Of a DNA stretch of 57,567 bases, positions 5,576 to 46,211 are shown in pieces; positions within the stretch are counted from its first letter, which is position 1, and each line of letters opens with the position of its first letter. The DNA is from Anaerolineales bacterium. GTDB lineage: Bacteria; Chloroflexota; Anaerolineae; Anaerolineales; E44-bin32. The notes beneath the pieces were generated by a model. It worked only from the letters and a program-made list of their open reading frames with translations, was not told the DNA's origin and searched no databases. The stretch covers positions 1 through 57,567 of the forward strand of contig JBJYWH010000134.1 in NCBI GenBank assembly GCA_046259355.1, written 5' to 3'. The position numbers were made by a program, and so were the translations under genes.

Positions 5576-7747
5576 TCAGCCTTCAAGGATCTCAAGCGGT
5601 GCCAGGGATGCAACCAGGTGCTTTACGCCATCCTGTTCAAATTCAATTTCCAACTCCTCGTCATCGAACTCAAGTCGGGTTTCAACCACGATACCTTCCC
5701 CGAACGTGGGGTGCCGCACACGCATGCCCCTGCGGTAGCGGGGCTGAACCGTCGGCTGGACCGGGTTCTCCCAGCGCGTCTGGGCGCGGTACTCCCGCTG
5801 TGTCCACGTTTGAATCCCGGGTAGTTCGCCCTGCACCAGATCAGGAGGGATGTCATACAAGAAACGGGATGGCTCGCTCAGCATTGATGGCCCGGCAAGG
5901 CGACGGCGAAAAGCGCGCACGAGGAACAGCCGATCCTGCGCGCGCGTGACCCCGACGTAGAAGAGGCGTCGTTCCTCGGCCATTGCCTCCGGGTCGTCGA
6001 AGGAGCGCTGATGCGGCAGCACACCGTCGTCCATGCCGATAATCATCACGACGGGAAACTCGAGGCCCTTCGCGGCGTGCAGGGTGAGCAGCGTTGGGGC
6101 GTTCTGTTCGTCGCTGAGCGTGTCCTGATCGGAGACGAGCGCGACGTGCTCAAGGAAAGTTGTCAAATCCACCGTGCCGAACTCGTACGCTGCCCGGCGC
6201 AGTTCCTGTATATTCTCCCACCGTTCGGCGCCCTCTTCCGTGCCATCTTCGATATACGGTCGATAGCCGCTGCCTTCGAGCACCGAGTCGACCAGCTCGA
6301 TCAGCGTGAGTTGTTCGCGGACGTCGATCCAGCGCGCAAGCGGTTCGGCGAACGAAAGCAGCGCCGAACGAGCCCGGGTGTCGATCTGGTCGGCATAGGC
6401 GTGCTCGGGGTCGGCTGCCAGGTCGAGCAGGACCCGGCTTGGTTCCTGACCGTGCGCTTCGGCAAGCCGCAGCAGCAGTTCAACGGTTTTATCGCCAATG
6501 CCGCGCGGCGGCGTGTTCATGACGCGCAGCAGGCTGACCCGGTCCGAAGGGTTGTGGATCAACCGTAAGTACGCGATCAGGTCCTTGATCTCGCGCCGGC
6601 CGTAGAAGCGCTGTGCGCCAACGAGTTGATAGGGCAGGCCGGCCTGCAGGAACTTCTCTTCCAGCGCGCGCGATTGAGCATTCGTCCGATACATCACGGC
6701 GACGTCCCGCGGCTGGCGGCCTTCGTGCACCAGCCATGCGATGGTCTCGACGACGAAGGCGGCTTCATCACCTTCGTCGTAGCTTTCATGCAGCATCACC
6801 GGCTCGCCGCGTCCGCGCTCGGTGAAGAGCTGCTTCTTGCGGCGGTCTGGATTGCGGTCGATCACCGCCATGGCGACGTCGAGGATGGTCTGCTTGGAGC
6901 GGTAGTTCTGTTCGAGCAGGATGGTCTGGGCGGCTGGGAAATCCTGCTGAAAGCGGTGGACGTTCCGATAGTCCGCGCCGCGCCAGCGGTAGATGGATTG
7001 ATCGGGGTCGCCAACGACAAACAAATCCGGTTCAACGCCCGCCAGCAGCCGCAGCAGTGCATACTGGGCGCTATTCGTGTCCTGGAATTCGTCCACCAGT
7101 ATGTGTTGATAGCGCCGGCGGTAGGCCAACCGAACCTGATCCTGCGCCTGCAGCAGCCTGACTGCCCAGAAGAGCAGATCGTCGAAATCGAGTGCATTGT
7201 TGAGCAGCAGCAGCTCCTGGTAACGCGTATAAGCACGCCCGACGATCTCGTTGAAGTAGGTATCGCTGGCCAGGTCCTGGGGCTCAATCAGCTCGTTCTT
7301 GGCGCGAGAAATCGCGGCATGGATTCGCGCGGGCGACTGCTGTTTGGAATCGACCTGCAGCTGGCTGAGCACCTCGCGCAGCAGCGATTGCTGGTCAGAT
7401 TCGTCAAAGATGACGAACTCGCGCGTGAAGGGCAGGCGTTCAGATTCCCGCCGCAGCATGCGGGCGCAGAAAGCATGGAAGGTGCCCAGGCTTATTCCCG
7501 ACAAACGCTCGGGGCTTTCTTCCAGCAGGGCGGCCACCCGCAGTGCCATCTCGCGGGCGGCCTTGTTGGTGAACGTCACGGCCATGATCGAGGCGGGAAT
7601 ACTGCTGAGTTCCCGCACCAGGTAGGCCACGCGCTGGGTCAGGACGCGCGTTTTGCCCGAGCCCGGGCCGGCCAGGACCAGCACCGGACCCGGTGCTGCA
7701 GTAACAGCTGATTGCTGCGCGGGGTTCAATTCAGCAAGCCAATTCAT
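5576..7747 (-). CDS. pcrA: ATP-dependent DNA helicase, PcrA/UvrD (SF1) family
   Basis: 723 aa with Walker A AGPGSGKTRVLT, DEFQDTN, and a C-terminal UvrD_C plus Tudor-like tail (RVRHPTFGEGIVV). Confidence 0.9.
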   Translation of the reverse strand: MNWLAELNPAQQSAVTAAPGPVLVLAGPGSGKTRVLTQRVAYLVRELSSIPASIMAVTFTNKAAREMALRVAALLEESPERLSGISLGTFHAFCARMLRRESERLPFTREFVIFDESDQQSLLREVLSQLQVDSKQQSPARIHAAISRAKNELIEPQDLASDTYFNEIVGRAYTRYQELLLLNNALDFDDLLFWAVRLLQAQDQVRLAYRRRYQHILVDEFQDTNSAQYALLRLLAGVEPDLFVVGDPDQSIYRWRGADYRNVHRFQQDFPAAQTILLEQNYRSKQTILDVAMAVIDRNPDRRKKQLFTERGRGEPVMLHESYDEGDEAAFVVETIAWLVHEGRQPRDVAVMYRTNAQSRALEEKFLQAGLPYQLVGAQRFYGRREIKDLIAYLRLIHNPSDRVSLLRVMNTPPRGIGDKTVELLLRLAEAHGQEPSRVLLDLAADPEHAYADQIDTRARSALLSFAEPLARWIDVREQLTLIELVDSVLEGSGYRPYIEDGTEEGAERWENIQELRRAAYEFGTVDLTTFLEHVALVSDQDTLSDEQNAPTLLTLHAAKGLEFPVVMIIGMDDGVLPHQRSFDDPEAMAEERRLFYVGVTRAQDRLFLVRAFRRRLAGPSMLSEPSRFLYDIPPDLVQGELPGIQTWTQREYRAQTRWENPVQPTVQPRYRRGMRVRHPTFGEGIVVETRLEFDDEELEIEFEQDGVKHLVASLAPLEILEG

Positions 7748-9798: not shown

Positions 9799-10400
9799 GG
9801 CTGAGCTCCAGCTTCTGGCCAGCGGTGATCAAAGGCCTTGATAAAGCTTTCGAGGGTTGCTTGATCCCAGAGCACAAGCCAGATTTCATGCAGTGCGGGC
9901 TCGGGATTCCCGGCGGCAAAATCTTCCATGGCGGTAAGGATCTGAACGGCGGCTCGATCCCTGGGGAAGCCGAAGATCCCGGTGGAGATGGCTGGCAGCG
10001 CGATGCCCGTAAAGCCCTGGTCTTCGGCGAGCTGCAGCGCCGAGCGTACGGCTGTGAAGAGCTTGTGATCCTCCTCGCCTTCCCCCCACACGGGACCCAC
10101 GGCATGGATTACATAGCGACATGGCAGCTGGCCAGCGCCCGTCAATGCGGGCTGGTCGGCGCGAATAGGTCCGTGTTCACGGACCCAGGCATCACTCTCC
10201 TGCTGGATTGAATCCCCCCCACTTCGCAGGATGGCTCCCGCCACCCCGCCTCCGTGCCGAAGCCGGGCGTTTGCGGCGTTGACGATCGCATCAAGCGGAA
10301 CCTTTGTGATATCACCGCGCATCAGCGCCAGCTTTGTGCCGTTCAAGAGCGATGTCTCCCGGATGTGGTCGTCGATGACGCCCTCCTGCAACTGAGGCAT
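9795..10400 (-). CDS. macro domain protein (ADP-ribose / O-acetyl-ADP-ribose hydrolase family)
   Basis: Motifs GDITKVPLDAIVNAAN, GGGVAGAI and VIHAVGP. I start it at the ATG at 10400 (MPQLQEG...), because the 56 codons upstream in the 257-aa ORF look non-coding. ATGA overlap with trmH-like gene. Confidence 0.8.
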   Translation of the reverse strand: MPQLQEGVIDDHIRETSLLNGTKLALMRGDITKVPLDAIVNAANARLRHGGGVAGAILRSGGDSIQQESDAWVREHGPIRADQPALTGAGQLPCRYVIHAVGPVWGEGEEDHKLFTAVRSALQLAEDQGFTGIALPAISTGIFGFPRDRAAVQILTAMEDFAAGNPEPALHEIWLVLWDQATLESFIKAFDHRWPEAGAQP

Positions 10401-20116: not shown

Positions 20117-22486
20117 CTAGGCTGCCAGCAGCAGCTTGTTGTCTGCCGACGGCTGGCGATCCTTGTAGATGGCCGAGGCCGGTCGAATGCCCGTCCAGCT
20201 CTTCACGCGACCCGCCAGCAGCGGCACTCCGGGATCCACCCCCGGGGGCGGCAGCACACCGGGTGGACCCCAGTAGCCGGCGTTCGCCAGCAGCCAGGTC
20301 TCGAGCATGTTCCGGTTGACGCCGATCGGCGACACGATGCTCTCGATCGCCCGCAGCAGCAGCTCGCGGTACGCGGCGCGGTCGTAGTGCACATCGCCCT
20401 CGATCAGCTCCCAGGCCAGTGCCTTTTCCGGGCCGGGCACGAACAGGAAGTTCAGCCGCTCGCCGGGGTGGAGCTCGACCCCGGTCCCTGCCAGCTGCTG
20501 GGCGACGCGCGCGGCCGCGGTGCGCACGGTGTATTCCTCCGGCTTGCGGGACAGGCGGTGGGCGACGACCAATTCGGCGGGATTGACCTGGCCGGTGCAC
20601 AGCGCCGCCAGCCGCTGGCGGGCGTAGTCCAGCGCTTCCGGCAGTGCGGCGCGAAAGCCGGCCGCATCCTCGCCGGTCGCCAGGATCTCCAGCATCTCCA
20701 GTTGGGTCTGCTTGATGAAGCGCGGCGTATCGTGGCGGCGCGCTTCGATGCCGCGCACCTTCAGCGTGCGGTCCTCGTACGCGCCGAAGTAGCGGTTGGC
20801 GACCGCCACGCGCGGCTCGCTGCGCGAGGGCAGGAAGGCCAGCCAGCGGTAGACCCCCTCCAGCCCGATGTGCAGCCCGGTGCGATTGTGAATCTGCTCC
20901 AGCAGCGCCTCGTAATCCGGGCGCTGGCGCGCGCCGGGTTTGTAGATCCACAGCCCATCGACATACAGGTGCAGCACGCGAAAGCCCTGTGCTTCGACCA
21001 GCTCCTTGGTCTGCAGCAGGATCTCCCGGCCGTAGGCATTCACGGCCTCGTGCGCCTCGATGCGCCCGAAGCGGGCGTTCTTGTAGCCCAGGTAACCGAA
21101 GCAGGTCACCAGCAGCCACTTGTGGGCCGAGTAGCGCCGGCGGAACGGCTCCCGGCGCGGGTCGTGCGGCTCCATGGCGCGTATCAATTCCTTGTAGCGG
21201 CGGCGCTTTTCGAGCAGCGGCGCCAGCGTTTCCGGCACCAGCCCCAGGCGGTGGCGGCAGACCGGAGTGCCCAGCTCGGGGATCGGCTCGCCTTCGCAGC
21301 AGCGCGCCCCGACAGTCTCGGGCGAGATATTGAAGTGCACCATGATGCTGGGGTACATGGCGCTGAAGTCGAGCTCGGCGACGTGTTCGTGCAGGCCGGC
21401 GATCGGCGTGTAGACCAGCCCGCCCTTGTCTGCCGTGAGCAGGTCGAGTCCGCTCTTCAGGTCCTCTGGCTGGCGCTTCTGCCATGGCACCAGCACGTCG
21501 CGGCGCAGCGCGGTCGCGACCTGCATGGCGCTGATGCCGGTGCCGGTTGAAACGCGGGCGACGGTCTGCGGCGGCAGCCCGGAGAGGCGGGCGATCTCGA
21601 GAATGCCGTCGATGCCGTAATCATTCGCTAGGAATGCGTTCTGGCGGTCGAGGTGCCAGCGCCCGAAGAGCAGGTGCTGCTCATTGCGGAAGACCACCCG
21701 ACCGTAGGAGAAGTAGGAGGAGGCCGATTTGCGCTGCACGGCATACCCCGGGTCGCGGTTGAGCGGCAGCGGGATGCCGTAGTGCTCCGCCAGCTGGATC
21801 AGGCGCGGCAGGATGTAGTTGTCGCCGTAGGTCGAGACGATTACATCCGGGTCGTACGCCTCGAGCAGATGGCGCATGCCCAGCACCAGCTGCCGGCTGC
21901 GGCGGCGGGGGAAGCGCAGCGTCTCGCCCTCGATCTCGACCAGCAGGTCGGCCCGGTGGCCGCGGCCAGGGTCGCGCATGTCGCCGGCCAGGCGCAGCGC
22001 CATCGTGCGCAGCGGCGGCAGCGCGTAGTCGATCTCCCAGGGCGAATCGAGCGAGCGGATCTCACGCACCTGTTCCCCGTCGACCTCCAGCGCGCAGTAC
22101 GCCAACGGGAAGACTCCGCGCGTCAGCACGTAGCGCTGGGCGAGCGAGATATCGGCGTTGTAGTAGGTCAAGTCGGGAAAGGCATCGGCTGTTCGGCGGA
22201 AGAGGGCCGGCAGCTGCCCAGGCTGAGGTACGCCCACCTCGAGCACCTCCACCGGGCGGTCGAGGAACAGATCGCGGTGCTCGCCGCTCGCCAGCGTCAC
22301 CGGCGTACGCCCCCGGCGCAGCCACTGGCAGAGCGCGTGCAGTTCCGGGCGCGGGCCGCGGGCATAGAACGTGGCCGTGAACGAATCGCGCAGCTTGTGG
22401 CTGCGGCCCTGCGCGTCGAGCACCCAGACCGTCATGCCCTGGCCGTCCGGGTAGGTGTCGAACAGCCAGCCGAAGAGGGTGGTCAT
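20117..22486 (-). CDS. family-B DNA polymerase, archaeal-like, exonuclease motifs degenerate
   Basis: 789 aa. Motif A is LDFSAMYPSIMVHFNISPET. The motif B region is KWLLVTCFGYLGY. Motif C is GFRVLHLYVDGLWIYKPG (compare Pfu GFKVLYIDTDGLYATIPG). The ExoI position reads LRTMALRLAG and ExoII reads DPDVIVSTYGDNYILPRL. Confidence 0.85.
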   Translation of the reverse strand: MTTLFGWLFDTYPDGQGMTVWVLDAQGRSHKLRDSFTATFYARGPRPELHALCQWLRRGRTPVTLASGEHRDLFLDRPVEVLEVGVPQPGQLPALFRRTADAFPDLTYYNADISLAQRYVLTRGVFPLAYCALEVDGEQVREIRSLDSPWEIDYALPPLRTMALRLAGDMRDPGRGHRADLLVEIEGETLRFPRRRSRQLVLGMRHLLEAYDPDVIVSTYGDNYILPRLIQLAEHYGIPLPLNRDPGYAVQRKSASSYFSYGRVVFRNEQHLLFGRWHLDRQNAFLANDYGIDGILEIARLSGLPPQTVARVSTGTGISAMQVATALRRDVLVPWQKRQPEDLKSGLDLLTADKGGLVYTPIAGLHEHVAELDFSAMYPSIMVHFNISPETVGARCCEGEPIPELGTPVCRHRLGLVPETLAPLLEKRRRYKELIRAMEPHDPRREPFRRRYSAHKWLLVTCFGYLGYKNARFGRIEAHEAVNAYGREILLQTKELVEAQGFRVLHLYVDGLWIYKPGARQRPDYEALLEQIHNRTGLHIGLEGVYRWLAFLPSRSEPRVAVANRYFGAYEDRTLKVRGIEARRHDTPRFIKQTQLEMLEILATGEDAAGFRAALPEALDYARQRLAALCTGQVNPAELVVAHRLSRKPEEYTVRTAAARVAQQLAGTGVELHPGERLNFLFVPGPEKALAWELIEGDVHYDRAAYRELLLRAIESIVSPIGVNRNMLETWLLANAGYWGPPGVLPPPGVDPGVPLLAGRVKSWTGIRPASAIYKDRQPSADNKLLLAA

Positions 22487-22815
22487 GCGTCCCCGGCCTC
22501 ATGAGCCGTCCGGTTCGCAGGCGTGTCGGGCGGCAGCGCCGGCTGCTCGGTTTTGCCCTGCCCGGAACGCAGCACCTCGACCTCCTGCTGCAGCAGCAGG
22601 ACCTGTTTGTGCTCCTCGACCAGCATGGCGAGCAGCATGACCTCGAATGGCAGCAGGTGGGAGGCGTAGGCGGCCGCCGCCAGGTGACGGCGGGAGGCGC
22701 CCAGCAGGTCATCGAGCGCGCGCTGGTCTTCACGGCGCAGCGCCCGGCGGAAGCGAGCCAGCGATTGCTGCTCGTGTAAAAAAGCCTGTGTAATCGATGG
22801 CAGTGTGCGTCCCAT
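22483..22815 (-). CDS. small helical protein of unknown function, translationally coupled to polB
   Basis: 110 aa with strong GC3 bias. SD GAGGT. The stop overlaps the polB ATG (ATGA). No family recognised. Confidence 0.6.
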   Translation of the reverse strand: MGRTLPSITQAFLHEQQSLARFRRALRREDQRALDDLLGASRRHLAAAAYASHLLPFEVMLLAMLVEEHKQVLLLQQEVEVLRSGQGKTEQPALPPDTPANRTAHEAGDA

Positions 22816-22953: not shown

Positions 22954-23568
22954 TCAGTTGAACAAGCGCAGTTGCTCGCGGGATGTGTCCTCGGGCGCCC
23001 GCAGCAGCCAGGCGGCGTCGGCCGCGACCTGCAGTTGATCGAGCAGCGACCAGCGCTCCTTGACCAACACGCGCGGCTCGCGCGCGCCGACAATCACCGG
23101 CCCGCTCGACGCCAGGCGTTTCAGGTGGGCGATGGTCTTTGTCAGCAGGTGCTCGGATTCGCGCAGCGGGACGCTCTCGTCGTAAAAGGTGGTGAGCAGA
23201 TCGAGCACAAAGAGCACCTCGCCCGAAGAATGCAGGGCGGCGGGCGCGTTTTCAATCAGCTGCGCCAGCTGGAAGCAGGTGAAGGCGCGCGAGAGCTGCA
23301 CGCGTTCCAGCACGGCGTGTGGATTCGGGCTCAGGCGGCGCGCCAGGCGGGCGATGAAATACCCATCGAAGCGGTTGCCGCCGTCGAAGACGCGCACCTG
23401 CTGGCCGCGCGCTGCGATCAGCGTCAGAGCCGCCAGCAGCGACCGGGTGGGCGTCTCGGCGCCCCAGAAGAGCGACAGGCGCGGTTGCAGCAGCATCTCC
23501 AGCGTGGATGGATCGTCCAGAACCCGCGGCAGCGGCGGCAGTTCGGTGGAAACGAGCGTTGATGACAT
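22954..23568 (-). CDS. RecA-superfamily-fold protein with degenerate P-loop (ImuA/SulA-like, inferred)
   Basis: ATG at 23568, 5 nt after GGAGGT. It shows strand-loop-helix LSLFWGAETPTRSLLAALTLIAA where GxxxxGK[ST] would sit, a Walker-B-like VLFVLDLLTTFYDE, and LSRAFTCFQL. Confidence 0.5.
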   Translation of the reverse strand: MSSTLVSTELPPLPRVLDDPSTLEMLLQPRLSLFWGAETPTRSLLAALTLIAARGQQVRVFDGGNRFDGYFIARLARRLSPNPHAVLERVQLSRAFTCFQLAQLIENAPAALHSSGEVLFVLDLLTTFYDESVPLRESEHLLTKTIAHLKRLASSGPVIVGAREPRVLVKERWSLLDQLQVAADAAWLLRAPEDTSREQLRLFN

Positions 23569-23598: not shown

Positions 23599-23626
23599 AT
23601 AGTAGAACAAATGTGCTAACAGTCTA
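23599..23626 (-). promoter_or_regulatory. promoter-like element with LexA (Cheo-type) box upstream of the PolB cassette
   Basis: Box GAACAAATGTGC at 23605..23616 (11/12 to GAAC-N4-GTTC), flanked on the minus strand by TAGACT (-35-like) and TACTAT (-10-like) with a 16-nt spacer. It shares the 12-mer TAGAACAAATGT with the box at 29371..29382. Confidence 0.6.
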
Positions 23627-23666
23627 TCTCTGGACGATTGCGCCGCAATCCCGTGGGGGGTGGAAC

Positions 23667-23698
23667 CGCGCGGGTGATTCGCGAATCACCCGCGCGGG
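23667..23698 (-). terminator. 32-bp perfect GC-rich palindrome downstream of the plsC-like gene
   Basis: CCGCGCGGGTGATTCG/CGAATCACCCGCGCGG, 16+16 nt with no mismatches, 33 nt after the stop at 23732. No U tract on either strand. Confidence 0.35.
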
Positions 23699-23731
23699 GG
23701 AGCGAGAAAGAACCGATTTGGAATGATGGGC

Positions 23732-24400
23732 TCAGGAACTGGAACGGGCGAGCAGTTCCTGCAGGCGGGGATGATCAGCGTAGTAGCCGCGGTACCGGGG
23801 AGGAAGCATGACGGCGATGCGGCACATCACTTCGTCGGCGTTGGCTCGCAGGCTGGCGTTGCGATCCGTTTCATCGAGCGGGGGCAGCCGGAAGGATTTT
23901 CCAACCCACATGGTGAACTTCGGACGGCGCAGCCGACGCCAACAGGCGATTGTGTTTTCGGTGCCGGCGACGGCAATGGGCACGATCGGGACATCGACCT
24001 CGCTGGCCAGGTAGGCGACGCCTGTCTTGGCGCGCGCCATGGCGCCGGTCTTGCTGCGTGTCCCCTCGGGCGCAATGCCGAACATGTTGCCGCGCTGGAT
24101 CCAGGCCACGGCCGCCTCGATTGCGTGCCGGTCAACCTGGCCGCGTTCGATGAAGATGGCATTGCCCATGCGCAGGATGAGCCCGAAAAGCGGGTGGCGG
24201 GCGTACTTTTCAGCCGCCCAGCCGGTGACGTTCTCGCCGCCGACCAGTCCGAAGACGAGCGGCAGGTCGAAGATGCTGAGGTGGTTGATGGCCAGAATGC
24301 ACGGTCCCTGTGCAGGAAAATTCTCGAGCCCCTGGACCTCACGGCGGGCGAGGAGTGAGGCCAGAAAATTGAAGCTCCAGCGCAAGAAGCGTGAAAACAT
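23732..24400 (-). CDS. 1-acyl-sn-glycerol-3-phosphate acyltransferase family (PlsC-like)
   Basis: ATG at 24400 after GGAGAGG. Motifs NHLSIFD (HX4D), FIERG and APEGTRS. Only the C-terminal 222 codons of the 617-aa track ORF are coding. Confidence 0.85.
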   Translation of the reverse strand: MFSRFLRWSFNFLASLLARREVQGLENFPAQGPCILAINHLSIFDLPLVFGLVGGENVTGWAAEKYARHPLFGLILRMGNAIFIERGQVDRHAIEAAVAWIQRGNMFGIAPEGTRSKTGAMARAKTGVAYLASEVDVPIVPIAVAGTENTIACWRRLRRPKFTMWVGKSFRLPPLDETDRNASLRANADEVMCRIAVMLPPRYRGYYADHPRLQELLARSSS

Positions 24401-24425
24401 CGATCCTCTCCTGATCGGGCTTTGA

Positions 24426-24454
24426 TTGTAGACGCATTTCCACGGTGCTACAAT
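24426..24454 (+). promoter_or_regulatory. sigma-70-like promoter for the GNAT-like gene
   Basis: TTGTAG-N17-TACAAT with an extended -10 TGc (GGTGCTACAAT). Confidence 0.4.
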
Positions 24455-24481
24455 GACTCCGATCCGTACAGGGCAACGGCC

Positions 24482-25609
24482 GTGATCGAGATCCAGCAAA
24501 TTGAAACCCGATCCAGGAGCGAGGTTGAACGGTTCGTCCGTCTGCCGTTCAAGCTGTACCGCGGCCACCCGTTGTGGGTGCCGCCGATCCGCATGGATGT
24601 GCGCACCCGGCTCAACCGTGAAAAGCACCCTTTCCATGAACATTCGCAGGCCGATTTCTTCATCGCCCGGCAGAATGGTGAGGATGTGGGCCGCATCGCA
24701 GCCATTGAAAACAAACCCTACAACGAGTACCACGGGACCCGCCAGGCGCAGTTCTATTTCTTCGAATGCGTGGAAGACCTGGAGGTCGCACGCGCACTGC
24801 TTGAGCGGACCTTTGAGTGGGCGCGTGTGCGGGGCCTGAACGCCGTAGTGGGCCCGAAGGGTTTCGGACCGCTCGACGGCTACGGTATGTTGGTGGAAGG
24901 TTTCGAGTTCCGGCCGGCCATGACGATGATGAATTACAACCCGCCGTATTATCCGGCGTTCATGGAATCGCTGGGGTTCCGAAAAGAGGTCGATTTCGTA
25001 TCCTGCTATTTGAGCGCGCAGAAGTTCCATCTTCCGGAGCGAGTGCACCGCATTGCCGGACGGGCGGCGAAGCGCAGCGGGCTGGCGGTGAAGCGCTTTC
25101 GCAACAAGCGCGAGCTGCTGGACTGGGCTCCGCGCATCGGGGTGACTTACAACAACACCTTCATCAACAATTGGGAGTATTACCCGCTCAGCGAGCGTGA
25201 GATCGACTATGTCATCAGCGAGATTCTCACCATTGCCGATCCGCGCCTGATCAAGATCATCACCCACGGCGAGGATGTAGTCGGCTTCCTGTTCGGGTTT
25301 CCCGATGTCTCGGCTGCCATTCAGCGCAGCAAGGGGCGATTGTTCCCCTTCGGCATCATCGACCTGCTGATCGAGATGAGGCGCACCCGCTGGATCGCCC
25401 TGAACGGGGCCGGGGTACTTCCGGAGTACCATGGCCGGGGCGGCAACGCGCTGCTCTACAGCGAGATGGAAAAGACGATCCACGAGTTCGGATTCCGACA
25501 CGCGGATCTGACTCAGGTGGCGGAAAGCGCGGTGCAGATGCGCAGCGACCTGGAGAATGTGGGCGGCGTGGCTTACAAAAACCACCGCGTTTTCATTCGC
25601 GAAATCTAA
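24482..25609 (+). CDS. large GNAT-like acyl/acetyltransferase family protein
   Basis: About 375 aa from the GTG at 24482, downstream of the predicted promoter. The C-terminal GNAT core is NGAGVLPEYHGRGGNALLYSEM (Q/RxxGxG/A-like). The N-terminal half looks like a second degenerate GNAT fold. Confidence 0.6.
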   Translation: MIEIQQIETRSRSEVERFVRLPFKLYRGHPLWVPPIRMDVRTRLNREKHPFHEHSQADFFIARQNGEDVGRIAAIENKPYNEYHGTRQAQFYFFECVEDLEVARALLERTFEWARVRGLNAVVGPKGFGPLDGYGMLVEGFEFRPAMTMMNYNPPYYPAFMESLGFRKEVDFVSCYLSAQKFHLPERVHRIAGRAAKRSGLAVKRFRNKRELLDWAPRIGVTYNNTFINNWEYYPLSEREIDYVISEILTIADPRLIKIITHGEDVVGFLFGFPDVSAAIQRSKGRLFPFGIIDLLIEMRRTRWIALNGAGVLPEYHGRGGNALLYSEMEKTIHEFGFRHADLTQVAESAVQMRSDLENVGGVAYKNHRVFIREI

Positions 25610-25694
25610 ACCCTCCTAATCAGCCGGGTAGAAACGTTTTCACCGTGGGCGCCTGCCGCGCCCTGTGGTATCGTTTAATTTGGAGGGTAATGGT

Positions 25695-27170
25695 ATGGAA
25701 TTGACCGCATCACCCGGGGTGGCAGTGCGAAACCGGCATGATTGGTGGCGGCAGATCAAGGCCGCATACGTTCCGGGCCCGCAGCGCGAAACCGTCGAAC
25801 CCTATGTCCGGCGGGTGCTCGAAGCGCTCGAACAGCTCGGACATACCGTGCTGGATGAACCGGCTCCGGGGCTCGACCTGCTGCTGACGAGTGCGGGCTT
25901 TGAGCAGGCTGTGCCGTGGCGCAAAGCGCTGATGTTCACCGCCCGCAAACGATTCGGGCTGGACCGGAACCCGACCGTCATCACAATGCTGCATACTTCG
26001 CGGGCCGAGTTTGACCGTGCGCTGAAGCGCCTGGAACGGGGTCTTGGGCATGAACTACCGAATCCGGCCGCTTTCGCTGCCGAGGGCCTTGCTCCAGAAG
26101 CCTGGCGCGTGCTGCTGGAGCAGGGCAAGCGCGGCGGTCCGATCCTGTCGCTCGTGCGCCAGGTTCAGGGTCAGGCGATGTGCATCCGGAATGTGATCTT
26201 CATCAGCGAGGGAGATCACCTGTGGGCGACGTACTTCGACCTGGTCGGTGCGCATCCGGTTGTGGAAGCGGTGGCGCCTCAGGACTTCTACACCGATGCT
26301 GCGCTGCGTCTGATCACAGCCGTCAGCACGCGGCCGGTGACCGATCACGAGGTCGTCGAACCCGAGATTGATCGCTCCACGTGGGAGCGTGCGAGCACTC
26401 CCGCAGCAATGGTGCGGGCGGCGACCGAGTTTGACCGGCGGGGTTTCTTCACCGAGATGATCCGGATCCACGACCTGGTTCACGTTCCGGCGCTGGAGCA
26501 GGCCGTCGCCAGCCAGTACAGCGAAGGCTGCTTCGCCACCTGGGACCCCGGGTTGAAGGCGCTGATCTCGACGGTCACCGGCAGCGCCCGCCCGGTCGAT
26601 AAGGGCCGGATCGGTGAAGCGGATCTGGCGGTCATTGTTGGGGTGCGGAAGAATGGGCGCGGGGCGCTTGTTCGCCATGTCGCCGGGAAAGTCAACGATC
26701 CTCCGTCCTCCGAGGCGGTCGAGCTGATGGATATGGATGCTGACCTGCCGCGCATTCACCTGGACGCAGCCTTCGGCCTCGCTGGGGAGGTGCCGGTGGC
26801 GCGCTCCAAGCTTCACGGGCACCGCGGGGTGCGGTCCTTTGATGCTGCGCGGGTTGAATTCGTGCCGCTGGATCCGGCGTACTACGATTACCCGGTTTCA
26901 TGCTCCACCGATGCACAGGCGCGCGCCATCAAGCATACCTTTGCCCGGGCTCAATCACTTCTCAACCCGGCCGATGACCGCTCGATTGCATTTACCGTGC
27001 TGCCCGGACACGGACTGGTGGCGGTGGAGAAGTGGGTCCCGGGACATAAACCGTTCGAGGTGCTGTGGAAAGCGATGGATGATCATTCGCTGGAAATTGA
27101 CTCGATCGTCCCGCAGGGTCGGCACGACTACCGCATCGAAGCCGGGCGGGGTGAACTGGTGGAATTTTAA
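25695..27170 (+). CDS. hypothetical protein, 491 aa, no recognisable motif
   Basis: ATG at 25695, 7 nt after GGAGGG. Soluble and mixed alpha/beta by composition. Consistent codon bias. Confidence 0.6.
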   Translation: MELTASPGVAVRNRHDWWRQIKAAYVPGPQRETVEPYVRRVLEALEQLGHTVLDEPAPGLDLLLTSAGFEQAVPWRKALMFTARKRFGLDRNPTVITMLHTSRAEFDRALKRLERGLGHELPNPAAFAAEGLAPEAWRVLLEQGKRGGPILSLVRQVQGQAMCIRNVIFISEGDHLWATYFDLVGAHPVVEAVAPQDFYTDAALRLITAVSTRPVTDHEVVEPEIDRSTWERASTPAAMVRAATEFDRRGFFTEMIRIHDLVHVPALEQAVASQYSEGCFATWDPGLKALISTVTGSARPVDKGRIGEADLAVIVGVRKNGRGALVRHVAGKVNDPPSSEAVELMDMDADLPRIHLDAAFGLAGEVPVARSKLHGHRGVRSFDAARVEFVPLDPAYYDYPVSCSTDAQARAIKHTFARAQSLLNPADDRSIAFTVLPGHGLVAVEKWVPGHKPFEVLWKAMDDHSLEIDSIVPQGRHDYRIEAGRGELVEF

Positions 27171-27934: not shown

Positions 27935-28759
27935 TCAAGGGGCGAGGGCTGCTGATCCAGTGGAGCGAGACAACCATTTCTGGGCGAAGTCGACCGCGGC
28001 TGGCTGCGAGAACAGGCGGCTCTCGGCGGAACCGACCCGGCCCATTTTAACGGGATGCTGCTCTTCGAACTCCGCTCCGATCTGTGCAAAAGGCGTTTCG
28101 TCGAGATCGACGTCCCGGTAGGTGACCCAGGTTCGCGTGCCGTTCCGCATGACCGGTGCACCCTGGGCGATGTCCCGCCGGCGTCCAATGCGGTACTCCG
28201 CCAGGTGGAAGGAGGTGTTATTGCCGTAGCCGACGCCGAGCAGCAGCACGTATCCCTGCAGATCGTAAATACGTGCCAGCGGCGAACCTTCGCCGAGCGG
28301 ATCCTCGAGCTGATGGCCGCGCGTGATCTCCTGCGCCCGCGCCCCCCAGGCGCTGAAGGAGAGCGCCGGGTGATCGCTGCGCAGCACGTCTGGCCAGGTG
28401 CGGAAGTGTTCGGGAATGCGGCCCATGCCGCGCGTAGGCGTGAGGCGTGGATCGTAAGCCGGCATGGTTTCCCGCACGGGATCCACCCAATCGGTCGGGA
28501 CGGGCGGATTTTTCCAGAGGGCAGGCTCGGAAAGATCGCCGGAGTGAGCTGGCATGACCAGCGTGCCCGCGGGTGTGAGCACATCCTGCAAGGCCTGAAT
28601 CACGGCCACCGAACCGCCATTGACCCACCCGAGCGCAGAGAGCGAGCTGTGCACGAGAACAATCATGCCCGGCTCGAGTCCCAGGCGGTGCAGGTCCGCC
28701 GCAAGGCTCTGGCGGGTGCGCGGTTCCGGTGTGGCGGCGATCAGATCCGATTCGGCCAT
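27935..28759 (-). CDS. aminoglycoside N3-acetyltransferase (AAC(3)/Antibiotic_NAT) family protein
   Basis: ATG at 28759 after GGAGGGA. Motifs LHRLGLEPGMIVLVHSSLSALGWVNGG, GTLVMPAHS and NTSFHLAEYR. The 458-aa track ORF is an artefactual 5' extension. Confidence 0.8.
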   Translation of the reverse strand: MAESDLIAATPEPRTRQSLAADLHRLGLEPGMIVLVHSSLSALGWVNGGSVAVIQALQDVLTPAGTLVMPAHSGDLSEPALWKNPPVPTDWVDPVRETMPAYDPRLTPTRGMGRIPEHFRTWPDVLRSDHPALSFSAWGARAQEITRGHQLEDPLGEGSPLARIYDLQGYVLLLGVGYGNNTSFHLAEYRIGRRRDIAQGAPVMRNGTRTWVTYRDVDLDETPFAQIGAEFEEQHPVKMGRVGSAESRLFSQPAAVDFAQKWLSRSTGSAALAP

Positions 28760-28833
28760 CGTCCCTCCGACCGGGATTATACCTGTCCTCCCTTCTGCCC
28801 GGTGCCCAACCAGTGATCCCGATCCGGGGGATA

Positions 28834-29313
28834 TCAACCAGCCTCCTGCCGCCACCAACGCAGGCCGAGATCGAGCAGCAGCATGCGCAGGTCGGACTTG
28901 CTGTGCAGGCCGAATTTGCTCAGCACGCTGCGCACGTGCGACTTGACGGTTTCGGGTGAGATGACCAGCTTTTCGGCGATCTCCTGGTTGGTGCGGCCGC
29001 GTGCCGCCAACCAGGTGATCTCGCGTTCGCGCGGTGTGAGCGACGCCAGCACCGCTTCCGCATGCCGGCGCAGTGCCTCGCGCTCGAGTGCGCTTGAGAG
29101 CAGTTCCTGCGCCAGGGCCTGCGGGGACCGGTTGCGGACGCGGGCCGCACGGCGCAGAAGAAGTGCCAGCTGCCCCTCCAGCTCGACGGTCAGGCCGGGA
29201 TGGCTGGAATCGGGCGCCAGCCGGCGCAGACGCGCCAGCCATCCCACCCGGCCGGGTGATGACGTGGAAGGTCGTTCGGTGCTGGCGGAGTTCAACCGGC
29301 GAAAAAACCACAC
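28834..29313 (-). CDS. LuxR/GerE-family HTH transcriptional regulator
   Basis: C-terminal LTPREREITWLAARGRTNQEIAEKLVISPETVKSHVRSVLSKFG. The start is uncertain; I favour the GTG at 29313, 6 nt after GGGAG and downstream of the predicted TSS. Confidence 0.7.
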   Translation of the reverse strand: MWFFRRLNSASTERPSTSSPGRVGWLARLRRLAPDSSHPGLTVELEGQLALLLRRAARVRNRSPQALAQELLSSALEREALRRHAEAVLASLTPREREITWLAARGRTNQEIAEKLVISPETVKSHVRSVLSKFGLHSKSDLRMLLLDLGLRWWRQEAG

Positions 29314-29364
29314 AGGGCGCTCCCGGGCGTGCTGAGCTGGAAGAGGAGGAACACGCCCAACCCG

Positions 29365-29393
29365 ATTATATAGAACAAATGTTCGTATGTCAA
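29365..29393 (-). promoter_or_regulatory. consensus sigma-70 promoter with an embedded perfect LexA (Cheo) box
   Basis: Minus strand reads TTGACA (29393..29388), then the 17-nt spacer TACGAACATTTGTTCTA, then TATAAT (29370..29365). The spacer contains the perfect palindrome GAACAAATGTTC (29373..29384). Confidence 0.75.
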
Positions 29394-29471
29394 TCGATGG
29401 ACAGGCGTCATAGACCTGTGCTGGCTTCCCTGATAGACTCGGCCGGTAGCGATCGATCAATGGGAGGGTGA

Positions 29472-30293
29472 ATGAGAAGAATGCGTCGCATGCCATGGTT
29501 CCTGGTGCTCATCCTGGTCAGTTGCAGCGGCCAGGCGGCAGGCCCCGGAGCAACAGGTACGCCTGCTGTCCCAGCACAGTCGCCGAGCTCCCCTCCAGCG
29601 GTGACGGAGTCGCTGCCCACGGCGATCGCTGTGCCGGAGGCGATCATGGTCCTCGAGCCGGGTCCGGGCTCGCGGGTTGTCAGCCCGCTCCACCTGGCCG
29701 GAATGGCAGATTCGACGTTTGAGCAGGTCCTGAGCGTCCAACTGGTTTCGTTCGAAGGCGGGCTGCTCGAAGAGCTGGCGCCGGTGATGATTCAGTCCGA
29801 AATGGGACAGCGCGGCCCATTCTCAGCCGACCTGGAGTTCTCGATCGACCGGGAGCAGAATGCGCTGATCCAGGTGCTGGCCCACAGCCCGCGCGACGGT
29901 GGCGTGACGCACCTCTCTTCGGTCGGCGTGACGCTGCTGCCCGCCGGCGAAGCGCAGATTAAATCGCGCCAGCCCTATTCTGAGCAGATCATCATCATGC
30001 AGCCCTCACCGGGTGAGGGGGTCAGCGGAGGTATGCTGCACGTGGGAGGGGTGGGTACTCCCACCTTCGAGGGTACGCTGGTCGTCCAGCTGTTCGACGC
30101 GAAGGGGACCCTGCTTGCTACGCAGCCATTGATCGTGAATGCCCCCGACATGGGGCAGCCCGGGGATTTCTCACTCGACCTGTCCTACAGCGTGTCTGTT
30201 GCCGGGCCGGGCCGGGTGGTAGTATCGGATCCGAGCCCGGCCTTCGATGGCTTGAATCATCTTGCCAGCGTCGAGATCAAGCTGGAGCCCTGA
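29472..30293 (+). CDS. lipoprotein with two Gmad2-like Ig-fold domains
   Basis: Lipobox LILVSC. Two about 100-aa repeats (PGPGSRVVSPLHLAGMA...THLSSVGVTL and PSPGEGVSGGMLHVGGVG...NHLASVEIKL). The Gmad2 assignment is from memory. Confidence 0.5.
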   Translation: MRRMRRMPWFLVLILVSCSGQAAGPGATGTPAVPAQSPSSPPAVTESLPTAIAVPEAIMVLEPGPGSRVVSPLHLAGMADSTFEQVLSVQLVSFEGGLLEELAPVMIQSEMGQRGPFSADLEFSIDREQNALIQVLAHSPRDGGVTHLSSVGVTLLPAGEAQIKSRQPYSEQIIIMQPSPGEGVSGGMLHVGGVGTPTFEGTLVVQLFDAKGTLLATQPLIVNAPDMGQPGDFSLDLSYSVSVAGPGRVVVSDPSPAFDGLNHLASVEIKLEP

Positions 30294-45488: not shown

Positions 45489-46211
45489 CTACCCGCCTGC
45501 CGCAGCCACAAAATCCAGTTCAAGCTGCACCTGTTCGGAAACTCCCGCCACCTGCGGAACGGAGGGTATTTGAAGATCGAAATCGGCGCGCTGAACGGTG
45601 GCCTGCGCGCGGCCGGAAATTCGAGTTCCGCTCTCGATATTCACGCTTACATCAAAGGTGACCGGCCGGATGATATCCCGTATCGCCAGCTGACCGGCGA
45701 CCTGGAAGGAGATTGCGTCCCCAACGGATACGGCCGAGGGGAGACCGACGATCGATTCCGGCGTGAAGGTGATCGTGGGGTAATCGCCAGTCTGCAGGAT
45801 GAAGTTGGCGATCGCCCGGTTGCGGAAATTGTTATCCGTCGCCAGCGAATCGGCGCCGATCATGATCGGGCCGATTGAGGCCTCGGTCGGGTGGGCAGGA
45901 TCGATGCGAATCTGCCCCTGCACGTCGCGGGTGGCACCAACGACGGTTTTGGGCGAGCCGGCCAGGACTTCATCGATGATAAAGCGCGCTTCGCTCTCGG
46001 CTGGCACGATGGAGAACATGAGTTCGCCGCTTCCCGACGCGCCCGACGATTCTGGCACCGTGGTCGGCGCCGGTCCCGTTGGGGCTGCAGGGGTTTCTTT
46101 TGCTGCCGGGAGCTCGGTGGCTGTGGCCGGCGCCTCACTGCTGCAGGCAGCAAGCAGCACGGCTGCGAGTATCAAGAAGGAGAAATTGCGCACAGCAACG
46201 GGTTTCTTCAT
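45489..46211 (-). CDS. YceI-family lipoprotein
   Basis: Lipobox LLAAC. A Pro/Thr/Ala linker followed by a YceI-like core (ESEARFIIDEVLAGSPKTVVGATRDVQGQI). Confidence 0.7.
   Translation of the reverse strand: MKKPVAVRNFSFLILAAVLLAACSSEAPATATELPAAKETPAAPTGPAPTTVPESSGASGSGELMFSIVPAESEARFIIDEVLAGSPKTVVGATRDVQGQIRIDPAHPTEASIGPIMIGADSLATDNNFRNRAIANFILQTGDYPTITFTPESIVGLPSAVSVGDAISFQVAGQLAIRDIIRPVTFDVSVNIESGTRISGRAQATVQRADFDLQIPSVPQVAGVSEQVQLELDFVAAAGG

Follow-up and report, generated by a model that had tools for sequence, protein, structure and literature searches.

Contig JBJYWH010000134.1 of an Anaerolineales bacterium (Chloroflexota; assembly GCA_046259355.1) was analyzed over its whole stretch of 57,567 nucleotides, hereafter called the window. 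At positions 29365-29393 of its minus strand lies a consensus promoter whose spacer holds a LexA-type operator. A sequence-only reading of this DNA had recognized the design of a tightly repressed, strongly induced SOS gene, had assigned the promoter to a LuxR/GerE-type regulator, and had pointed to a box with the same 12-mer in front of a PolB cassette 5.7 kb away. The locus thus raises the question of why an SOS-type promoter should drive the gene of a small regulator (hereafter the luxR-like gene), and what that regulator has to do with the polymerase. Our comparison of related loci makes it probable that 29365-29393 is a LexA-repressed SOS promoter and suggests that the LuxR-like protein is an SOS-made, second-tier regulator of the PolB2 cassette.

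Promoter and operator of the luxR-like gene

The elements in question are the following.

29388 to 29393, minus strand: -35 hexamer TTGACA of the luxR-like gene (sequence and promoter scan)
29373 to 29384, no strand assigned: LexA-type operator GAAC-N4-GTTC, on the plus strand GAACAAATGTTC, inside the 17-nt spacer 29371-29387
29365 to 29370, minus strand: -10 hexamer TATAAT (sequence and promoter scan)
29320 to 29324, minus strand: Shine-Dalgarno sequence GGGAG, 6 nt before the GTG start (read from the sequence)
28834 to 29313, minus strand: luxR-like gene, 159 aa (Pfam, family alignment, AlphaFold 2 (AF2) model, Foldseek)

On the minus strand, 29393 to 29365 reads TTGACA-TACGAACATTTGTTCTA-TATAAT, with hexamers that agree with the consensus at 12 of 12 positions and a spacer of 17 nt. 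No other match to TTGACA-N17-TATAAT occurs in the window, even when one mismatch is allowed, and 0.01 are expected from shuffled sequences. The promoter scan likewise scored the site at 12/12 and returned no other promoter-like site within 22-31 kb. The GTG start of the luxR-like gene follows the -10 hexamer by 52 nt, as fits the layout of a sigma-70 promoter, and transcription is predicted to start near 29358. This start codon, at 29313, is supported by the GGGAG 6 nt upstream and by the N-terminus M-W-F-x-R-R, which is kept across 39 homologues in the family alignment. The promoter is therefore as the sequence-only reading had it. Its description of the spacer as a perfect palindrome applies to the arms, GAAC and GTTC, but not to the whole 12-mer, the centre of which, AAAT, is not self-complementary. 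Set inside the 17-nt spacer, the box overlaps the core promoter, a placement in which a bound repressor would exclude RNA polymerase.

Perfect GAAC-N4-GTTC sites number two in 57.6 kb, one of them at 29373-29384, with 0.49 expected by chance, and this count alone is not significant. The 12-mer TAGAACAAATGT is present in exactly two copies, at 23603 and 29371, 5768 bp apart, whereas 0.05 are expected. The identity between the two boxes that had been claimed thus holds for the 12-mer, while the box in front of the PolB cassette, GAACAAATGTGC, departs from the motif by one arm mismatch. When a position-specific scoring matrix built from 81 related boxes was applied to the window, it gave 25.4 bits at 29370-29387 and 19.2 bits at 23602-23619, the next best site reaching 7.2 bits. 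A third candidate at 46014-46025, GAACATGAGTTC, is the only other perfect GAAC-N4-GTTC; it lies inside the open reading frame (ORF) 45489-46211(-), has GC-rich flanks and scores 7.2 bits, and was set aside as a chance occurrence.

Conservation was assessed by a scan with one genome per species, which yielded 80 loci, mostly from metagenome-assembled genomes (MAGs) of Anaerolineales or Anaerolineae, together with Thermanaerothrix solaris (L032, NZ_JAUHMF01). Complete Anaerolineae genomes with the luxR-like gene include CP070708, CP070785, CP070639 and OY969578. A perfect GAAC-N4-GTTC precedes the orthologue in 67 of the 80 loci, and a box with one mismatch stands in the same promoter context in nine more. 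The remaining four comprise two Dietzia loci, one locus without upstream DNA and one with the box further upstream; the Dietzia loci encode unrelated actinobacterial GerE proteins. The box lies between a -35 hexamer with at most one mismatch and a -10 hexamer with at most two in 57 of the 80 loci. Retention at 76 of 79 evaluable loci amounts to a phylogenetic footprint and upholds the earlier idea of an operator set inside a strong promoter. The 806 kb of loci contain 82 perfect boxes, about 12 being expected by chance, and all but about 10 of them stand before the luxR-like gene or before iRadA, the first gene of the PolB2 cassette described below. The box is invariant although the luxR-like protein diverges down to 37% identity, and its flanks in the Anaerolineae clade favour TAGAAC...GTTCTA. 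Four contigs with the luxR-like gene and typical Anaerolineae synteny come from bins labelled Methanosarcinales, Thermoguttaceae, Planctomycetota and Methanofastidiosum (L021, L024, L048 and L073) and are probably mis-binned.

Leader length varies among these loci. In many relatives in which the luxR-like gene directly heads the cassette (L041, L045, L052, L060, L066, L069, L074, L076), its start codon follows the -10 hexamer by 5-9 nt, and the mRNA is probably leaderless. Unlike these, the gene in the window has about 45 nt of leader, which contain a Shine-Dalgarno sequence.

The PolB2 cassette and its linkage to the luxR-like gene

Three genes and three upstream elements make up the polymerase locus of the window.

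22954 to 23568, minus strand: iRadA, inactivated RadA/Rad51 homologue, 204 aa (Pfam Rad51, E=3e-5; GGAGG 6 nt before the ATG)
22483 to 22815, minus strand: PPB2, arCOG07300-like small helical protein, 110 aa (tblastn, gene position)
20117 to 22486, minus strand: PolB2, family-B DNA polymerase, 789 aa (Pfam DNA_pol_B, E=1.8e-27; NCBIfam type-B polymerase, E=2e-118)
23603 to 23618, no strand assigned: second LexA-type box, TAGAACAAATGTGCTA (minus strand TAGCACATTTGTTCTA), with one arm mismatch, overlapping the predicted cassette transcription start
23621 to 23648, minus strand: putative weak cassette promoter, TTGCGG (23648-23643), 16 nt, TAGACT (23626-23621), read from the sequence
23641 to 23700, minus strand: conserved 60-nt GC-rich element, CCCCCGCGCGGGTGA-N8-TCACCCGCGCGG-TTCCACC-N6-CGGGATTGC, abutting and overlapping the cassette -35 hexamer

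The genes iRadA, PPB2 and PolB2 are co-directional, adjacent and in the order of the mutasome operon, the PPB2 stop codon overlapping the polB2 start by 4 nt. In iRadA, the P-loop region reads GAETPTRS, without GKT/S and without the Walker-A lysine, as judged by eye rather than from an alignment to RadA. PPB2 gave no hit in Pfam or NCBIfam, as its family would lead one to expect; by tblastn, the middle genes of other cassettes, between iRadA and PolB2, are 51-75% identical to it. PolB2 carries HLYVDGLWI (YVD) at the canonical DxD position, in agreement with the 'YVD' rows of a published supplement (PMC11791011). By domain content and gene order, the three genes are identified as a bacterial PolB2 translesion mutasome operon, iRadA-PPB2-PolB2. 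The window cassette contains no IMS or DnaE domain (Pfam, NCBIfam) and so is not a member of the imuA-imuB-dnaE2 group. The iRadA C-terminus (22960-22974, minus strand) ends in EQLRLFN, in which QLRLF resembles the beta-clamp-binding motif QLxLF; clamp-binding motifs have been reported in either iRadA or PolB2 of such mutasomes (Timinskas et al., PMC11791011).

The sequence-only reading had regarded the regulator as a non-canonical SOS target. Clustering of all ORFs across the fetched loci revises this, as the luxR-like gene emerges as the conserved first gene of the PolB2 cassette in Anaerolineae. In 38 loci, iRadA follows the luxR-like gene on the same strand. In 23 of these the luxR-like gene is directly upstream of iRadA-PPB2-PolB2, with gaps of -17 to about 770 nt, and the luxR-like proteins are those most distant from that of the window (37-47% identity). 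In the other 15, and in the window, the cassette lies 3-5 kb further downstream, with a conserved set of genes between the halves, namely an AAC(3)-like gene, a membrane protein, an opposite-strand GNAT-like gene and a PlsC-type acyltransferase. The boxes follow this division. Where the two are adjacent, one box stands before the luxR-like gene and the interval up to iRadA is free of boxes. Where they are split, in all 15 loci and in the window, iRadA is directly preceded by a second box, which is perfect in five loci and of the variant GCAC-N4-GTTC in ten and in the window. The two boxes of the window thus share a 12-mer because both halves of a split cassette keep an SOS box, a pattern known for imuABC (PMC3901139), and the proposal that they belong to one regulon gains a simple basis in the luxR-like gene and the PolB cassette being halves of one ancestral operon. 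On this comparative evidence we propose the luxR-like gene as the ancestral first gene of the PolB2 cassette in Anaerolineae and as its lineage-specific fourth member.

In the window, two opposite-strand genes, 24422-25609 and 25665-27170, separate the luxR-like gene from the cassette, and transcription from the luxR-like promoter therefore cannot serve the latter. A 617-aa ORF called at 23732-25585(-) was discarded as an artefact in which a shadow ORF is fused to the real PlsC-type acyltransferase gene (about 225 aa, 23732-24409(-)); the real gene opposite it is 24422-25609(+), which has a weak GNAT match and is conserved in related loci.

The split clade shares one layout before iRadA, TTGCGG-16 nt-TAGACT-4 nt-box, in which the TTGC and TAnAcT elements of the cassette promoter are conserved. 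As the box begins 4 nt past TAGACT, it covers the predicted cassette transcription start. The GC-rich element comes after the acyltransferase stop codon and ahead of the iRadA promoter, shows 72% mean column identity across 15 split-clade genomes and occurs once per locus, at the position of the cassette promoter only. Neither an Rfam match nor a covariation term above approximately 0 in RNAalifold was obtained for it, leaving a conserved RNA structure or attenuator unsupported. These features point to a protein-binding site, for which the LuxR-like protein is a candidate activator, or to an insulator after the co-directional acyltransferase gene, rather than to conserved RNA structure, with a plain hairpin terminator also possible.

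LexA, the LuxR-like protein and rival explanations

The sequence-only reading had named the motif a LexA box, and GAAC-N4-GTTC indeed equals the LexA motif of Gram-positive bacteria (PMC3323433). Further support comes from a metagenome scan for TTGACA-N2-4-GAAC-N4-GTTC-NN-TANAAT, in which 80 contigs among the matches listed were analyzed and the first downstream ORF was identified. Among these 80, the same promoter design precedes LexA in at least six contigs, a LuxR-like protein in at least seven and iRadA in at least three. It also precedes, in at least two contigs each, a short RecA paralogue, a Y-family/ImuB-like polymerase, a radical-SAM/HhH protein and a LysM (yneA-like) protein, the others including an FtsK-like protein and an integrase. 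Three of the metagenome contigs (L214, L224, L264) have iRadA-PPB2-PolB2 directly behind this design and no luxR on the contig, and these cassettes headed by iRadA have a consensus promoter. Since the design precedes lexA, SOS-type genes and luxR-less cassettes alike, it is a general SOS promoter, and the box is independent of the LuxR-like gene. Comparison thus strongly supports LexA as the binder and, judged by its sequence, the promoter at 29365-29393 is an ordinary, if unusually perfect, member of the LexA operator class. The LexA of Dehalococcoides reportedly recognizes the same motif.

Given these data, we envisage the following scheme. LexA bound to the spacer operator would exclude RNA polymerase from a consensus sigma-70 promoter, and LexA cleavage after DNA damage would let the luxR-like promoter fire strongly, so that the 159-aa DNA-binding protein would be made only during the SOS response. 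The ancestral operon would have been luxR-iRadA-PPB2-polB2, from which luxR would have been split off in the lineage of the window by insertion of the AAC(3)-like gene, the membrane protein gene, two opposite-strand genes and the acyltransferase gene; the split cassette would then have its own LexA-type box at the transcription start. There, the LuxR-like protein would act on a promoter that is weak (TTGCGG-16-TAGACT), with a GCAC-arm operator and the GC-rich element at the -35 position. LexA and the LuxR-like protein would together make up a feed-forward loop by which the error-prone polymerase is gated or its expression delayed. In its most specific form, which we advance only tentatively, the LuxR-like protein would be a dedicated SOS-induced activator that binds the GC-rich element (GGGTGA-N8-TCACCC / TTCCACC / CGGGATTGC) and switches on iRadA-PPB2-PolB2 in a coherent feed-forward loop. 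We prefer an activator role because the split-clade cassette combines a weak promoter, a weaker operator and the GC-rich element, as opposed to the consensus promoter of cassettes headed by iRadA.

Several observations weigh against this scheme. A tblastn search with E. coli LexA and RecA found neither lexA nor recA in the window and the 80 loci, and the lexA promoters of the metagenome sample stand on lower-GC contigs of other taxa. A literature search returned no paper on an Anaerolineae SOS regulon. No second conserved operator was found near the promoter in the loci of the operon type, the DNA target of the LuxR-like protein is a candidate site only, and the GC-rich element might just as well bind another factor or act as an insulator. 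Finally, in 20 loci whose downstream sequence extends for at least 5.6 kb, a boxed luxR-like gene stands with no cassette in its neighbourhood, and the protein may therefore have targets beyond the cassette.

Two other explanations of the box itself were weighed. A chance juxtaposition of promoter and palindrome in an AT-rich intergenic stretch is suggested by the unsurprising number of GAAC-N4-GTTC sites in 57 kb (two or more in 11 of 100 shuffles), but the rarity in shuffled sequence of the full promoter match and of the common 12-mer stands against it, and an arrangement kept in about 76 independent genomes refutes it, leaving it a negligible probability. The box could also be bound by the LuxR-like protein, which would then regulate its own gene from within the cassette in the way of Pseudomonas putida LexA2, with LexA uninvolved. 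In the loci examined the box is almost confined to the fronts of luxR-like genes and iRadA, GerE-type dimers bind inverted repeats, and a repressor gene, lexA, heads the operon in other phyla, and in P. putida the cassette is under its own LexA2. Yet the luxR-like protein lacks an S24 peptidase domain and any other damage-sensing module, and the motif, which matches the Gram-positive LexA box exactly, stays constant while the protein diverges as described. Moreover, the same promoter and box precede lexA and other SOS genes in metagenomes and head PolB2 cassettes that have no nearby luxR (L224, L264), and a Chloroflexia MAG (L049) has a similar box before a prophage terminase operon. Self-regulation of this kind is thus quite improbable.

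As regards the protein, LexA might repress the promoter while the LuxR-like protein turns the cassette off again or aids LexA binding, as a negative-feedback repressor or co-repressor comparable to EppR, to DdrR/UmuDAb in Acinetobacter or to gp7 of phage GIL01. Error-prone polymerases are often under a second repressor (PMC12242105, PMC11332147; GIL01 gp7, PMC4551915), the strong promoter of the operon-type loci needs no activator, and the ribbon-helix-helix, a fold that the N-terminal half may adopt according to weak alignments, is typical of repressors. On the other hand, the cassette promoter of the split clade is non-consensus, its conserved element occupies the upstream, -35-proximal position typical of activator sites, and cassettes headed by iRadA without a nearby luxR have a consensus promoter, so that we regard a repressor as somewhat unlikely. 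Alternatively, the protein could belong to the PolB2 mutasome as a DNA-binding accessory subunit, or it could regulate unrelated SOS-phase functions and have no more than the operon in common with the cassette. The tight gene order, with gaps down to 4 nt or a 17-nt overlap with iRadA (L045, L076), the conserved short N-terminal motif and the 20 boxed luxR-like genes without a cassette would fit such a role. However, published models of the mutasome heteropentamer need only PolB2, iRadA and three PPB2 copies (PMC11791011), a GerE neighbour is the exception among bacterial PolB2 operons (127 of 1375 in group 1a), and the C-terminal domain is a standard NarL-type DNA-reading helix-turn-helix (HTH). 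We consider this reading unlikely. Control of the PolB2 cassette by an SOS-made LuxR-like protein behind a LexA-repressed promoter accordingly remains the reading that we favour.

This arrangement differs from published systems in several respects. The bacterial operon iRadA-PPB2-PolB2 is preceded by lexA in some bacteria (Makarova et al. 2014, PMC4104785; Timinskas et al. 2025, PMC11791011), and the window cassette resembles it in gene order, in YVD replacing DxD, in a PPB2 without a Pfam family, in a RadA without the Walker-A lysine and in its SOS link. Here, in contrast, a GerE-type regulator rather than lexA heads the cassette, LexA control is deduced from an operator rather than from gene adjacency, and the regulator gene is physically split from the cassette in the lineage of the window. 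The published definition comprises three genes and discusses neither the luxR-like gene nor any operator. GerE does appear in line 7 of Supplementary Table S1 of PMC11791011, with 131 polB2 neighbours, 127 of them in the bacterial-type group 1a, while the text is silent on it. The same paper lists PolB2 operons for Ornatilinea apprima, Bellilinea and Brevefilum fermentans. The imuABC cassettes, which keep one SOS box per part when split and occur as lexA2-imuA-imuB-imuC in P. putida (PMC3901139), are alike in being multi-gene translesion cassettes under an SOS box, in that a regulator can come first and in having a box for each split part. They are built from family-C DnaE2, Y-family-like ImuB and ImuA instead of family-B PolB2, iRadA and PPB2, and the embedded GerE-type regulator, itself apparently under LexA, would add a second tier of control. 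The Cheo-box promoters of the Bacillus subtilis/Gram-positive SOS regulon (PMC3323433) share the operator core and its overlap with the core promoter, but have the flanks CGAAC...GTTCG instead of TAGAAC...GTTCTA, and the host here belongs to the Chloroflexota. A LexA-repressed transcription factor is known in SigN (ZpdN) of the B. subtilis plasmid pBS32 (PMC6751061). In both cases the gene of a transcription regulator would be LexA-repressed and start a two-step cascade after DNA damage; SigN, however, is a full plasmid sigma factor that triggers cell death, as opposed to a 159-aa HTH protein tied to a polymerase cassette.

PolB2 mutasomes have only recently been recognized as active translesion polymerases, and of their regulation in bacteria no more is known than that lexA is sometimes adjacent. 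What appears to be new here is a GerE-type regulator, itself under putative LexA-type control, at the head of a family-B mutasome operon, together with a conserved element at the cassette promoter. Anaerolineae are abundant in sludge, sediments and the subsurface, and across this bacterial class the cassette is headed by a LexA-type operator and a GerE-type regulator, both of them retained when the operon breaks. The loci thus offer a first view of an SOS box and of regulon members in a phylum on which we found almost nothing published, a concrete candidate for second-tier control of damage-induced mutagenesis and, in the operon and split arrangements, a natural experiment on operator retention during operon fragmentation. 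A consensus promoter with a spacer operator would also be a useful tight, damage-inducible part for Chloroflexota genetics. If the proposed scheme is true, the LuxR-like protein would give the archaeal-derived PolB2 system its first assigned transcription factor in bacteria, and the feed-forward loop would limit mutagenic synthesis to sustained damage, with the delay set at transcription; the counterpart of this delay in E. coli is the slow cleavage of UmuD.

The LuxR-like protein and neighbouring genes

The product of 28834-29313(-) is, as had been proposed, a GerE/LuxR-type HTH protein. Its HTH, residues 91-143, matches PF00196 with 61.8 bits against a gathering cut-off of 23.5 (E=4.7e-17), and the product also scores weakly against sigma-70 region 4 models of Pfam. 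In the AF2 model (pLDDT 79), the basic N-terminus (MWFFRR...) is disordered, residues 47-59 and 64-91 form helices, and the C-terminal part folds into a canonical four-helix HTH, which Foldseek superposes at a root-mean-square deviation of 1.0-1.3 A on the DNA-binding domains of NarL, LiaR, VraR, FixJ and GerE (1je8, 4wsz and similar). No receiver, autoinducer- or ligand-binding domain was found by Pfam, NCBIfam or in the AF2 model. The protein is therefore neither a response regulator nor a quorum-sensing LuxR, but a small stand-alone GerE-type protein. It shares the C-terminal four-helix HTH with NarL/FixJ/LiaR regulators and stand-alone GerE, and differs from them in a family-specific N-terminal half that may resemble a ribbon-helix-helix and in lacking a receiver or autoinducer domain.

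A database search retrieved about 70 full-length relatives, nearly all metagenomic and one named "Chloroflexota bacterium". Their common layout is M-W-F-x-R-R, a variable linker, the block LTVE(L/V)..L...LRRAAR.R.RSP..L..DLL..GLE.E and, following it, the HTH. The N-terminal half is matched by neither Pfam nor NCBIfam, and no NCBIfam model covers the luxR-like protein. In a segment at about residues 41-75, hhalign places CopG and the PutA domain in register but weakly (P=0.005 and 0.0008, probability 8-24%), a PDB profile search of the N-terminal half gave a weak match to PutA 2jxg (E=0.16), and the monomer AF2 model has both helices of a ribbon-helix-helix, the strand being absent. The N-terminal half may thus adopt this fold, and its joining to a GerE HTH is possibly a previously undescribed architecture.

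One further gene may be served by the LexA-type promoter.

27935 to 28762, minus strand: AAC(3)-family acetyltransferase homologue (Pfam PF02522, E=1.5e-94), 71 nt downstream of the luxR-like gene

The promoter and terminator scan returned no terminator-like site between the two genes, and their order recurs in nine related genomes (L001-L006, L018, L048, L065), so the AAC(3)-like gene is possibly co-transcribed from the LexA-type promoter and DNA-damage-induced by read-through. With 200 bits its product scores under the 270-bit cut-off of the NCBIfam model AAC_3, and resistance activity is therefore not implied. The genes that follow the luxR-like genes lacking a cassette (sensor kinase, ABC/HlyD transporter, glycosyltransferase and others) show no common SOS theme.

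The only other obvious DNA-repair gene in the window encodes a UvrD/PcrA-type helicase (5576-7747(-)); it lies in an apparent operon and has no LexA-type box upstream. Outside the window, the Chloroflexia MAG L049 carries GAAC-N4-GTTC at 10091-10102, in a promoter-like context before the genes of a small conserved protein and of a phage terminase large subunit (Pfam Terminase_6C), and a homologue of the small protein is found behind the same promoter design on the metagenome contig L276. These two loci may represent an SOS-controlled prophage module.

Upstream of and divergent from the luxR-like gene, a gene for a Gmad2-domain lipoprotein (29472-30293) is preceded at 29411-29439(+) by its probable promoter, TAGACC-N17-TAGACT with an extended -10 TG (TGATAGACT at 29431-29439). 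As it lies 27 nt from the LexA-type box, this promoter is probably not LexA-controlled. Its block GAGTCTA(A/T)CAGGGA is conserved in about 10 related loci.

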